Part shown: one piece after another, positions 17,863 to 59,872 of the stretch
Layout of the letters: each line of letters begins with the position of its first letter
Position numbering within the stretch: position 1 is the first letter of the stretch
Source: a virus
Virus record (IMG/VR): IMGVR_UViG_3300037071_003688
Length of the DNA: 64,000 bases
Direction: 5' to 3' (one strand)
Program-made: the position numbers and the translations under genes
Notes under the pieces: model-generated
Databases searched by the model: none
What the model saw: only the letters and a program-made list of their open reading frames with translations
What the model was told of the DNA's origin: nothing

Positions 17863-18140
17863 CCTCGCATCTCGTCATCCGCGCGGTCGAGATGCGAAGC
17901 GGCGACGCCCAGCTATGGCTCGACACCGACCATCAGCGCATCGTGGACGTGTTCTTCGACCGCAGCCAACACCACAAACCGGACCCTGGCTTCGGGCATC
18001 TGTTCGTGGTGATCGAGATCCTCGCGAAACCTACTTGACTCCCGATCGGTCCAAGGTTTACGGTGTCCCCTCGTCCGGTCAGGCAGGTGACCTCCGCGGG
18101 GATCTGAGTCTGGCCGGACAACTTGACAACTTAAGATCTC

Positions 18141-18221
18141 GTGTGCCCGGTGCGTAGGTGACGGTTACTTCTCCCTTTACATGGAAACCAAGCTCCGTTG
18201 CCGTCTGGTTCTCGGGCACAC
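18141..18221 (+). ncRNA. Y RNA-like unit 1
   Basis: Terminal stem GTGTGCCCG/CGGGCACAC; shared GGTGCG.....TACTTC...GGTTCTC scaffold. Confidence 0.7.
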
Positions 18222-18232
18222 TGCACCATCGT

Positions 18233-18387
18233 TTCCGGCTGGTGCGCAGATGAGGGTTCCTTCGCATATGGAGCGGGTAGTCACAGGTTCGAGTCCTGTT
18301 CACGCCACCAGGCCCGCAAGGGTCGGTGTGATAGCTCAGTTGGCAGAGCGCCAAACAGTCCCCTTGTTGATCGGTTCTCAGCCGGAA
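18233..18387 (+). ncRNA. yrlA: YrlA-type Y RNA, unit 2 (circularly permuted tRNA mimic)
   Basis: T arm ACAGG-TTCGAGT-CCTGT, acceptor TCACGCC(ACCA)/GGTGTGA, D arm TAGCTCAGTTGGCAGAGC, in T-acceptor-D order; next to the Ro gene. Confidence 0.85.
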
Positions 18388-18394
18388 CACACCC

Positions 18395-18512
18395 TTTCCG
18401 GGTGGTGCGCTGATGATGGCTACTTCGCAAGTTCGATTCTTGTCATCCCCACCACATGGGGATGTGGGCATGGCGCCCGCACTGCCTTCGCCGCCTGGTT
18501 CTCACCCGGAAA
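18395..18512 (+). ncRNA. YrlA-type Y RNA, unit 3
   Basis: T arm GCAAG-TTCGATT-CTTGT, CATCCCC(ACCA)/GGGGATG, reduced D arm; stem TTTCCGGGTG/CACCCGGAAA. Confidence 0.8.
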
Positions 18513-18519
18513 CGATCTC

Positions 18520-18619
18520 TCTGGTCGGTGCGCAGATGGGAGTTACTTCAACGGATGAAACGGCTTCGGCCGTCGTGGCTCGAAACCACAAGCCTCCCGC
18601 CGCCAGGTTCTCGACCAGA
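18520..18619 (+). ncRNA. Y RNA-like unit 4
   Basis: Stem TCTGGTCG/CGACCAGA, same scaffold, non-tRNA insert. Confidence 0.75.
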
Positions 18620-18628
18620 AAACTCGAC

Positions 18629-18749
18629 CCTGCCCGGTGCGCAGATGACGGATACTTCCTTCACACATGCAGAAGGTCCCCGGAGCGGCGGTAACCAATC
18701 CGTGCCAGCTTGGGAACCAGTCCCCGTTGTCGCTCGGTTCTCGGGCAGG
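18629..18749 (+). ncRNA. Y RNA-like unit 5
   Basis: Stem CCTGCCCG/CGGGCAGG; insert carries 16S-like motifs. Confidence 0.75.
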
Positions 18750-18760
18750 ACTTCCGCATC

Positions 18761-18853
18761 TGCGGTGCGATGACAGAGGTTCCTTCTCACCAGGGCGCAA
18801 GCCCACGAATGCCGGAACGAGAGACCGGCGCCCTCCGTCGCCTGGTTCTCGCA
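18761..18853 (+). ncRNA. Y RNA-like unit 6
   Basis: Stem TGCG/CGCA; insert has GCAA and GAGA tetraloop hairpins. Confidence 0.7.
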
Positions 18854-18907
18854 ACCAACCAATGACCCCAACGACCCAATGACCCAACCCTGAAAGGGGC
18901 AACGACC

Positions 18908-20521
18908 ATGAGCAAGTTCGCTCAAACCGCCACGACCGCCCGCCCGCAGGGGCCGCTGCACACCCTCCCCGGTGTTCAGACGCGCACCCACGAGGGCGGT
19001 CTCGGCTTCGTCAAGGACGCCCGCACCGAACTGTTCTCGCTCGGCGTCGCGAACTTCGTCGCCGAAGACACGTACTACGAGAAGGCCGGTGTCCGCGACA
19101 AGCGGTTCACGGATCTCGTGCGCGAGGTCACGGCACTCGACCCGGACTGGGTCGCGCACTTCATTCCGTGGCTCCGCCAGGAAGCGAACATGCGCACCGC
19201 TTCGGTGGTCGCCGCCATCGAGTACGCCCGCGCCGCTCCCGGCACGAACGGCCGCGCAGTGATCGCGCAGACGCTCACGCGCGCCGACGAACCAGCCGAG
19301 GCGCTCGCCTACTGGATGTCGCTCTACGGCCGCAAGATCCCCAAGGCCGTCAAGCGCGGCATCGCCGACGCCGTCGTCAAGCTGTACACGCAGAACGCCG
19401 CCATGAAGTACGACTCGCGCGACGCCAAGATGCGGATGGGTGACGTGATCGACCTCGTCCACCCCAACCCGCACGACGCGCTCCGCTACTGGGAGCAGGA
19501 CGACATGGGCATGTCGGACAGCGACGTGGAACTCCTCAAGGACCGCGTCGTGGAGCGCAAGCGCGCCCTGTTCCAGTACCTCCTCGACAAGCGCCACGGC
19601 CGCGACAACCCGCGCGGCCTCGACCGGCTCGGCAAGATCTCGGCCCGCAAGGACGCGATCAAGGCCGCGGCCGAGGGCGGCGAGTTGGACGTGACGACGG
19701 GCATGACGTGGGAGACCGCGTTGTCGCTCGGCGGCTCGAACGCGGAGACGTGGCAGAAGGTCATCCCGCAGATGGGCTACATGGCTCTGCTGCGCAACCT
19801 GCGCAACTTCGAGGACGCCAAGCTGCCCGCCAACGTCCTCATGCAGGTCGCGTCGACGCTGGCCGACCCCGAGCAGGTCGCCAAGTCGCGCCAGTTCCCG
19901 TTCCGGTTCCTGTCGGCGTGGTCGGCGTCCGGCTCGATGATGTGGGGTCAGGCGCTCGAACTCGCGCTCGAAGCGTCGTGCGCCAACATCCCCGAGTTCC
20001 CGGGCAAGACGCTGATCATGGTCGACGTGTCGGGTTCGATGGACGGCAAGATGTCGGCCAAGTCGACGGTGTCGCGCAAGGTCGCCGGTGCCGTATTCGG
20101 CGCGGCCGTGATGAAGCGGTCGGCTCCCGGCTCGAAGCTCGGCGTGTACGCCACGCTGTGCGCCGTGCAGGACAAGCCACGCTCGGTCCTGCGCACCGCC
20201 GAGGAGATCGGCAAGCTGTCGGGCGTCGGCGGTCACGGCACGAACACGTGGCCATCGACGTGGATGCTGTGGCAGGAGTACGGCCCATTCGACCGGATCC
20301 TCATCTTCACCGACGAGCAGCACCACCCATCGCACATCACGGCCGGTTCGTTCCCCAAGGACGTCCCGATCTACGTGTGGTGCCTGGGCGGCTACCGTCC
20401 GGCGTCGCTCGACCTCGGCACGGGCCGCTACCTGCTCGCCGGTCTCAACGACCAGTGCTTCAAGCTGATCAAGATCCTCGAAGCCGGGTCCGAGGGACGC
20501 TGGCCGTGGGAGGTCGACTGA
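18908..20521 (+). CDS. rsr: Ro60/Rsr TROVE-domain RNA-binding protein
   Basis: THEGG, EDTYYE, WLRQEANMRT, RADEPAE, TWET, MALLRNLRN, QFPFRF; vWA MIDAS DVSGSM and FTDEQ. Confidence 0.95.
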   Translation: MSKFAQTATTARPQGPLHTLPGVQTRTHEGGLGFVKDARTELFSLGVANFVAEDTYYEKAGVRDKRFTDLVREVTALDPDWVAHFIPWLRQEANMRTASVVAAIEYARAAPGTNGRAVIAQTLTRADEPAEALAYWMSLYGRKIPKAVKRGIADAVVKLYTQNAAMKYDSRDAKMRMGDVIDLVHPNPHDALRYWEQDDMGMSDSDVELLKDRVVERKRALFQYLLDKRHGRDNPRGLDRLGKISARKDAIKAAAEGGELDVTTGMTWETALSLGGSNAETWQKVIPQMGYMALLRNLRNFEDAKLPANVLMQVASTLADPEQVAKSRQFPFRFLSAWSASGSMMWGQALELALEASCANIPEFPGKTLIMVDVSGSMDGKMSAKSTVSRKVAGAVFGAAVMKRSAPGSKLGVYATLCAVQDKPRSVLRTAEEIGKLSGVGGHGTNTWPSTWMLWQEYGPFDRILIFTDEQHHPSHITAGSFPKDVPIYVWCLGGYRPASLDLGTGRYLLAGLNDQCFKLIKILEAGSEGRWPWEVD

Positions 20522-59109: not shown

Positions 59110-59182
59110 GATGCTGTAGCTCAGTGGAAAGAGCACCGGCTTGCGAAGCCGGTTGTCGCAGGTTCGAGTCCTGCCAGCGTCA
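59110..59182 (+). tRNA. tRNA-Arg(GCG)
   Basis: Full cloverleaf, loop TTGCGAA; no encoded CCA. Confidence 0.9.
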
Positions 59183-59185
59183 CTA

Positions 59186-59322
59186 CTCCACCGCAAAGGT
59201 TGGCTTAGAAGCAGCCATCCTCTAAGGAGTGACACCCGAGTCCGGACGGTCCGGTGGGAGCCAGGGAACTGGTGAGGAACCTATAGAGCCTCGTCTTAGG
59301 CGTAACAGCACATGCGGTGGGG
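59186..59322 (+). ncRNA. rRNA-mimic ncRNA (23S H43/H44 plus L1-stalk-like motif)
   Basis: Closed by CTCCACCGCA/TGCGGTGGGG; contains GTTGGCTTAGAAGCAGCCATC and GCGTAACAGC. Confidence 0.8.
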
Positions 59323-59325
59323 CGA

Positions 59326-59398
59326 CCGAATGTGGCGCAGTTGGTAGCGCACCTGGTTTGGGACCAGGGGGTCGGGAGTTCGAGCCTCTCCATTCGGA
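59326..59398 (+). tRNA. tRNA-Pro(TGG)
   Basis: Cloverleaf, loop TTTGGGA; no CCA. Confidence 0.92.
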
Positions 59399-59475
59399 CG
59401 AGCAGTTCGGCGAGACTTGAATGACCCGCTGAAAACCCGGGGTGCGGCCCGGGCGTCGAACTGCCAGAATGAACT

Positions 59476-59548
59476 GATGGTGTAGCTCAGTGGATAGAGC
59501 ACCAGCTTCCGAAGCTGGGTGTCGCAGGTTCGAGTCCTGTCACCGTCG
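59476..59548 (+). tRNA. tRNA-Arg(CCG)
   Basis: Cloverleaf, loop TTCCGAA. Confidence 0.92.
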
Positions 59549-59616
59549 CCCAAGGCCCAGGCCCGAGTCACCAGCCTGGGACCGTCGCCGGAACGCGTGG
59601 CGGCGGGACAGAAAAT

Positions 59617-59689
59617 GGGGATGAAGCTCAGAGGGTAGAGCAACTGCTTCGCACGCAGAAGGTTGCGGGTTCGACTCCCGTCCTCTCCA
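59617..59689 (+). tRNA. tRNA-Ala(CGC)
   Basis: G3:U70, A73, loop TTCGCAC; A8 and a 6:67 mismatch. Confidence 0.85.
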
Positions 59690-59690
59690 C

Positions 59691-59762
59691 GCCGCCGTAA
59701 CTCAACGGCAGAGTACCGGCCCGTCAAGCCGGAAGTCGCGGGGTCAGCACCCGCCGGTGGCG
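59691..59762 (+). tRNA. Atypical tRNA-Asp(GTC)
   Basis: Stems intact, G73; C33 and T-loop GTCAGCA. Confidence 0.75.
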
Positions 59763-59771
59763 CTCAACATA

Positions 59772-59842
59772 GGGAACGTCGTCCAGTGGTAGGGCGCCTG
59801 ATTCCAGTCCAGGCTACGAGGGTTCGATTCCTTCCGGTCCCG
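59772..59842 (+). tRNA. Atypical tRNA-Trp(CCA)
   Basis: Loop TTCCAGT, G73; A31:C39 and A5:G68 mismatches. Confidence 0.65.
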
Positions 59843-59872
59843 CTCAAACCGCCACGAGAGGAGGAAACCACC

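Follow-up and report, generated by a model that had tools for sequence, protein, structure and literature searches.

What do six tandem repeats directly upstream of a phage Ro60 gene encode? They lie in a 64-kb stretch (hereinafter the window) of a 147-kb soil-metagenome contig, and a first-pass annotation had described them as Y RNA-like units (U1 to U6) carrying swappable payloads on a common scaffold, with tRNA mimics in U2 and U3 and segments of 16S and 23S rRNA in U4–U6, the whole being read as a Ro-tethered library of decoys against ribotoxins. The reading that we favor, at a probability of about 85%, is that the repeats encode six small RNAs of the Y RNA type, arranged as a polycistronic array and serving the phage's own Ro60 protein (Rsr). 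The units and their shared words are as follows, the bit scores being those of R1, a covariance model built on the scaffold:

18141–18221, + strand: U1, scaffold with a short-loop, YrlB-like head (UUACAUGGAAACC); 77.9 bits
18233–18387, + strand: U2, scaffold with a permuted tRNA-like head; 94.4 bits
18283–18310, + strand: first part of the U2 head, with the T arm (18283–18299) and the 7-nt acceptor 3′ strand followed by ACCA (18300–18310)
18311–18350, + strand: remainder of the U2 head, with a GCAA hairpin (18311–18324), the acceptor 5′ strand (18325–18331) and the D arm (18332–18350)
18396–18511, + strand: U3, scaffold with a reduced tRNA-like head; 87.8 bits
18427–18478, + strand: U3 head, with the T arm (18427–18443), an acceptor-like stem with encoded ACCA (18444–18464) and a hairpin at the D position (18466–18478)
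18519–18620, + strand: U4, with a UUCG-tetraloop hairpin (18560–18573) and a T-loop-like hairpin (18575–18589); 73.1 bits
18628–18750, + strand: U5, with a hairpin at 18658–18676 (loop ACACAUGCA) and another at 18685–18705; 86 bits
18756–18856, + strand: U6, with a GCAA hairpin (18793–18804) and a C-GAGA-G hairpin (18812–18828); 59.1 bits
18149, 18241, 18404, 18527, 18636 and 18764, + strand: GGTGCG, one per unit
18166 to 18781, + strand: T(A/C)CTTC, one per unit
18207, 18373, 18497, 18606, 18736 and 18844, + strand: GGTTCTC, one per unit

The array thus spans 18141–18856 of the plus strand, its units being arranged head-to-tail with spacers of 6–11 nt. All six show the order GGTGCG, T(A/C)CTTC and GGTTCTC, the array holding six of the eight copies of GGTTCTC in the entire window, and in every one of the six folds the ends of the unit pair with each other. 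An alignment of these units with twelve from two related contigs, L001 and L002, yields a consensus of 20 base pairs made up of a closing stem, an asymmetric element and a second stem; the asymmetric element is invariant and consists of G-C, G-C with a bulged U, G-U and C-G. The scaffold helices are paired in 95.6% of the alignment cells, as against 40–52% once the 3′ strand is slid out of register; compensatory changes are seen in 12 of the 20 pairs. Likewise, the covariation score is 0.497 versus at most 0.11 after sliding, and double changes are found in 65 cells against 21.5 in shuffles, with the closing stems varying in sequence yet remaining complementary. This covariation of the closing stems indicates that the repeats are RNA structures rather than DNA repeats. 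When run on the 64-kb window, R1 recovers exactly six matches, all on the plus strand and scoring 59–94 bits. The claim of six tandem units on one scaffold is therefore borne out by the fixed order of the words, the R1 matches and the covariation. A blastn search of 50,697 phage records with the array gave no match, and in the contigs of four soil DNA runs the array was represented only by identical fragments of low depth, without any variant.

The heads mounted on this scaffold comprise tRNA pieces and a few fast-evolving hairpin sets. U1 has a short loop that is kept in both L001 and L002. The head of U2 displays the design of YrlA, with a T arm, a closed acceptor-like stem and a D arm in permuted order, and aligns through its T and D arms with positions 24–84 of the Rfam YrlA model (RF02553; 32.3 bits, E 6.9e-5), a score below the gathering score of 69 bits; at the gathering threshold no part of the array matches. 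U3 is a reduced form in which the T arm is accompanied by an acceptor-like stem of 7 perfect base pairs, its head being conserved in L001 and L002. The description of U2 and U3 as permuted tRNA mimics accordingly holds. In both units ACCA (discriminator plus CCA) is encoded after the 3′ strand of the acceptor-like stem (18300–18310 in U2 and 18444–18454 in U3); the corresponding position of the U2 orthologues reads GCCA in L002 and lacks the element in L001.

U4 belongs to a two-hairpin type that recurs, with a unit length of about 103 nt, in three other loci (L015, L020 and L047); units of this length are also present in other actinobacterial loci, the likeness there being one of length. In L002 the position of U4 is taken by a different head with a canonical GGGUUCAAGUCCC T arm. 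The heads of U5 and U6 are lineage-specific: among about 120 loci, BLAST detects a partial relative of U5 in L002 only and none of U6. The U6 units of L001 and L002 combine a GCAA hairpin and a purine-loop hairpin in the reverse of the order seen in the window, where the closing stem of U6 is weak, with just 3 bp. A rough sorting of 172 units assigns 69 to a YrlA-like class with T and D arms, 41 to a class with the T arm only, 43 to a short-loop, YrlB-like class and 19 to other types. Hence, of the notion of swappable payloads, the part that stands is the diversity of the heads and their turnover from one relative to the next; the part that concerns rRNA, taken up below, does not.

The surroundings of the array include the following elements:

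18034–18065, + strand: candidate promoter (TTGACT, 18 nt, TACGGT), in a block conserved in L001 and L002
18073–18119, + strand: leader hairpin (GTCCGGTCAG ... CTGGCCGGAC) between the candidate promoter and U1
18852–18907, + strand: rsr 5′ leader, with CA-rich repeats (CCAATGACCC / CAACGACCC) and then GAAAGGGG (18892–18899) before the ATG
18908–20521, + strand: rsr, coding for a Ro60/TROVE protein of 537 aa (Pfam TROVE, 4.1e-19; weak vWA_Ro60 match)

The promoter is given as a candidate because 18034–18065 is not a consensus sigma-70 match; a scan for consensus promoters and terminators at the array found none, and the block has no second copy elsewhere in the window. The leader hairpin is present in L001, while L002 has a shorter hairpin instead. 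The rsr ORF begins 52 nt 3′ of the array on the same strand. The CA-rich repeats in the interval occupy 18852–18889, with a similar block in L001 and L002, and may constitute an unstructured spacer that enhances translation or serves in processing. At E <= 1e-30 Rsr has 3617 homologues, and PF05731 is present in 120 of 120 among the matches listed. The other ORFs around the array match no informative Pfam or PHROG family, except for a peptidase and proteins of unknown function. A peptide scan of IMG/VR with Rsr recovered no relative, and the relatives considered here were obtained from the protein database and with the scaffold pattern.

Among these relatives, more than 100 further loci show the same-strand linkage of the scaffold to rsr. 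L001 and L002, whose Rsr proteins are 81–82% identical to that of the window, have six R1 units each, the first three unit types being in identical order in all three. Across 52 actinobacterial rsr loci we find 1–4 units directly upstream of rsr, with every match on the rsr strand: one unit in 6 loci, two in 27, three in 10 and four in 9. Cultured actinophages have 2–4 units beside rsr on the same strand, none of which is annotated, and other metagenomic or IMG/VR contigs have up to 7. In the 126 bacterial units GGUGCG is found in 117, the elements GGUGCG, UACUUC and a 3′ CUC being almost invariant, and the scaffold positions C34, U36, C37, U235 and C236 are invariant. Taken literally, the published motif GNCGAAN0-1G has a single occurrence among the 126 actinobacterial units and is absent from the six of the window. 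Its place is held by an invariant GGUGCG(C/A)AG, and 28 of the 126 units have UGCGAA. The site on the 5′ strand is thus homologous by position to GNCGAAN0-1G, not identical to it. Given the single literal occurrence, we infer the Rsr docking site from position and invariance rather than identity: it would be formed jointly by the closing stem, the GGUGCG/GGUUCUC element, the second stem and UMCUUC.

Several of the individual loci merit separate mention. In Gordonia phage Neville (L096), scaffold matches at 2005–2139, 2231–2374 and 2386–2476 overlap gp88–gp90, tiny genes annotated as 'hypothetical protein' directly upstream of the gene for the Ro-like protein, and these CDS calls are probably Y RNA genes. 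Two low-GC contigs (L098, 284–2017; L099, 1625–2971) carry seven scaffold units each beside rsr; these units are 33–43% GC, so the scaffold covers very different base compositions, and unexplained gaps between them may conceal more. In pSt2308 (L092), Atuin (L093) and BRock (L095), rsr and the Y RNA units are situated within long tRNA gene arrays; the tRNA block of the window (59110–59843) lies 40 kb from rsr.

The Y RNAs of metazoans and Deinococcus combine an effector module with a bulged helix that binds Ro60 and arises from the pairing of the RNA's ends. They resemble the units of the window in this modularity and in a 5′-strand GGUCCGA comparable to GGUGCG, and differ in being separate genes rather than a tandem polycistronic array and in having heads that are not permuted tRNAs. 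The closest parallel is offered by YrlA and YrlB of Mycobacterium smegmatis and Salmonella Typhimurium (Chen et al. 2014, PMC4201824), which share with the window the adjacency to rsr and the co-orientation with it, a closing stem with a conserved 5′-strand element and a variable head. The head types are also shared, i.e., a permuted tRNA (T arm, acceptor-like stem and D arm), an RNA with the T arm alone and a short-loop type. In M. smegmatis both RNAs are bound by Rsr; their genes precede rsr and a single precursor gives rise to the two, YrlA being cut by RNase P and receiving CCA (PMC4201824). A 7-bp acceptor-like stem that makes an RNase P substrate, and several units per precursor, would by analogy apply to the window too. 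The window differs in having six units instead of two, heads in U5 and U6 of no described type, GGUGCG(M)AG in place of GNCGAAN0-1G and an encoded ACCA in U2 and U3.

Among phages, the Ro60 of Thermus phage phiLo binds two Yrl RNAs encoded upstream of it (Yrl1 and Yrl2) and forms with them ternary assemblies with the host PNPase in gel-shift assays (PMC12135203). As in the window, a phage Ro60 has Y RNA-like genes directly upstream; in contrast, phiLo has two units against six, and the Rsr proteins are only about 28% identical. The Rsr-bound RNAs in print number two per species, in M. smegmatis (PMC4201824) and in phiLo (PMC12135203). The cultured actinophages BRock, Quantum, Atuin, Neville, VanLee and pSt2308 possess the same scaffold in tandem units beside rsr on the same strand. 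The window differs from them by its larger number of units (six versus 2–4) and by the distance of its tRNA block, their loci being embedded in tRNA gene arrays; its Rsr shares 35–38% identity with the 'Ro-like RNA binding protein' found in phages of Streptomyces, Arthrobacter and Gordonia.

By analogy with YrlA and YrlB of M. smegmatis, the six units are probably transcribed as one precursor, which would then be cut into single RNAs; RNase P is a likely agent at U2 and U3 because their 7-bp acceptor-like stems are followed by an encoded ACCA, and after an RNase P-type cleavage the heads of these two units would have a tRNA-like 3′ end without CCA addition. The individual RNAs would load on Rsr rings through the common stem, leaving the variable head as an effector-binding module, such that Rsr might, depending on the head, be tethered to one partner or another or be gated in a different way. 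U2, U3 and U4 would display tRNA pieces, U1 the short pyrimidine- or A-rich loop typical of YrlB-type RNAs, and U5 and U6 sets of fast-evolving hairpins.

The alternative that survives best is that the array acts mainly in cis as the 5′ leader of the rsr mRNA, through which Rsr would autoregulate translation or stability, the units not being released. The co-orientation of the units with rsr, their end so close to its start codon, the lack of a terminator between the two and the single candidate promoter upstream all accord with such a leader; however, in M. smegmatis the corresponding units upstream of rsr are set free and build up as separate RNAs bound to Rsr (PMC4201824), phage Atuin has units downstream of rsr as well, and autoregulation alone hardly accounts for six distinct conserved heads, of which two are RNase P-type substrates. 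We therefore regard a purely cis-acting role as unlikely and prefer released small RNAs that serve Rsr.

Whether the heads of U4–U6 do more than this was the central issue of the first-pass annotation, which held that they display conserved segments of the rRNAs (the 530 loop and positions 51–59 of 16S, positions 2424–2435 and 1965–1972 of 23S and the sarcin-ricin loop) as Ro60-tethered ribotoxin decoys beside the tRNA decoys of U2 and U3. Each of the words quoted does occur, letter for letter, both in the window and at the rRNA position given for it. Their frequency was assessed against the 16S and 23S rRNAs of E. coli K-12 and four actinobacterial genomes (ten rRNAs), using exact k-mers of k=7–11, three head sets (all six, U1 plus U4–U6, and U4–U6) and two kinds of target (words found in at least one of the ten rRNAs, and words that all five species share), with 1000 dinucleotide shuffles as the null and reversed rRNA as a further control. 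The k-mers shared with rRNA are at the level expected from the shuffles, all P values being at least 0.07, and reversed rRNA matches the heads as well as true rRNA or better; the annotation itself had named matches no higher than shuffled expectation as the result that would refute it. Similarly, 12-mers within one substitution or indel form 6 clusters in U4–U6 against 5.1 expected. None of the six heads contains a universally conserved rRNA 10-mer or 11-mer, the longest exact match within a head extending over 11 nt when one rRNA suffices and over 9 nt when all five rRNAs must share it. The longest match in the array, a 12-mer common to all five 23S rRNAs, falls in the scaffold stem of U5 and not in its head. 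The Rfam rRNA models find nothing in the array region at E <= 10.

The words also fail to persist in the orthologous six-unit arrays of L001 and L002. In U4, CAACGGATGAAA becomes GCAGGATGAAA in L001, and L002 has exchanged the head for a different one; the U5 head is replaced by a 15-nt loop in L001, while in L002 GCGGCGGTAA becomes GCGGCGGCGAAAG and CGTGCCAGC becomes CGTGCGGCTGC. The loop of the sarcin-ricin-like hairpin of U6 is changed to CAGAGAAU in L001 and to UAGAAG in L002. The structures differ as well. The AGUA/GAA bulged-G motif is the defining feature of the sarcin-ricin loop, and the topology of the 530 loop is equally well established. The C-GAGA-G tetraloop hairpin of U6 does recall the former, but its sequence (CCGG-AA-C-GAGA-G-A-CCGG) is devoid of the bulged-G motif, and the two purported halves of the 530 loop in U5 are the mutually paired strands of a single hairpin whose loop differs between relatives. 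GGGCGCAAGCC, put forward as a word of 16S h15, forms a GCAA-tetraloop hairpin of a generic kind, and its 16S match varies with the species, lying at position 376 in E. coli and at 511 in a Streptomyces. The rRNA-like words are accordingly chance matches and generic tetraloop hairpins.

That the k-mer test has the power to detect rRNA likeness is evident from a second element of the window, which passes it:

59184–59325, + strand: rRNA look-alike of 142 nt between tRNA-Arg and tRNA-Pro

This element shares 15 11-mers with rRNA against 0.7 expected, by the same statistic as used for the heads. Positions 59197–59219 show an exact identity of 21–23 nt to helix 43 of 23S rRNA (E. coli 1059–1079), that with the actinobacterial 23S rRNAs beginning two bases earlier than that with E. 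coli, and the element looks like a genuine rRNA look-alike. Of the proposal that this RNA and the array share an rRNA theme, the half concerning helix 43 is thus upheld, so that rRNA mimicry is not foreign to this genome, but the heads of the array stay at shuffle level.

Extending the comparison to other rsr-adjacent arrays yielded three pooled excesses of rRNA words, two of which have ordinary explanations. The first arises from D-arm words such as GGTAGAGC, repeated through homology, and the second, in the bacterial heads, from UUCG and GNRA hairpins, elements common to structured RNAs in general; outside such hairpins the shared 9-mers number 63 against 57.8 expected. The excess that remains is that of the pooled non-tRNA heads of phages and metagenomes, with 7 rRNA 12-mers against 0.7 expected and on the sense strand only. 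These represent five scattered sites at different places of the rRNAs, some in variable regions, and none comes from the window. Across 85 non-tRNA heads the rRNA matches are likewise scattered, with at most two loci per 25-nt bin, pointing to the absence of a common rRNA target. We consider this excess weak and unexplained, and it does not rescue the rRNA claim for the present locus. The longest rRNA match among about 250 units is a 16-nt exact one (GGCCCGTACCCCAAAC) between an IMG/VR Y RNA unit (L119:1885–2026) and actinobacterial 23S rRNA near 1812, a length that is borderline with respect to chance.

Taken with the literal presence of the words, the helix-43 identity and the pooled sense-strand excess on one side, and the shuffle-level k-mers, the loss of the words in orthologues and the differing structures on the other, a library of decoys against ribotoxins is extremely improbable here. 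As the rRNA words are no commoner than chance, the locus is better understood as an expanded ordinary Y RNA array.

Within that preferred reading, U5 and U6 could be conceived as new effector modules that tether Ro60 outside tRNA metabolism and that, jointly with the helix-43 look-alike, form one strategy directed at the translation apparatus; their partners might then be ribosomal proteins or host RNA-targeting defence nucleases. The sole hint in this direction is the scattered 12-mer excess in phage non-tRNA heads, and we hold this extension to be decidedly unlikely. Finally, short words kept unchanged along a tandem array might, as a matter of principle, be protein-binding or recombination sites acting as DNA, a prospect made practically negligible by the covariation of the closing stems, the restriction of all matches to one strand in more than 100 loci and the presence of T and D arms in the heads.

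These results remove an attractive but unsupported idea of rRNA decoys for these heads, and the controls employed, namely shuffles, reversed rRNA, orthologous arrays and a positive control within the same window, provide a design for evaluating claims of rRNA mimicry. A single scaffold model detects Y RNA arrays that are missed by Rfam and by genome annotation, and sorts their heads into a few recurrent classes and rare lineage-specific ones, such as those of U5 and U6. In actinobacteria and their phages, the Ro60-linked Y RNA genes are usually arrays.
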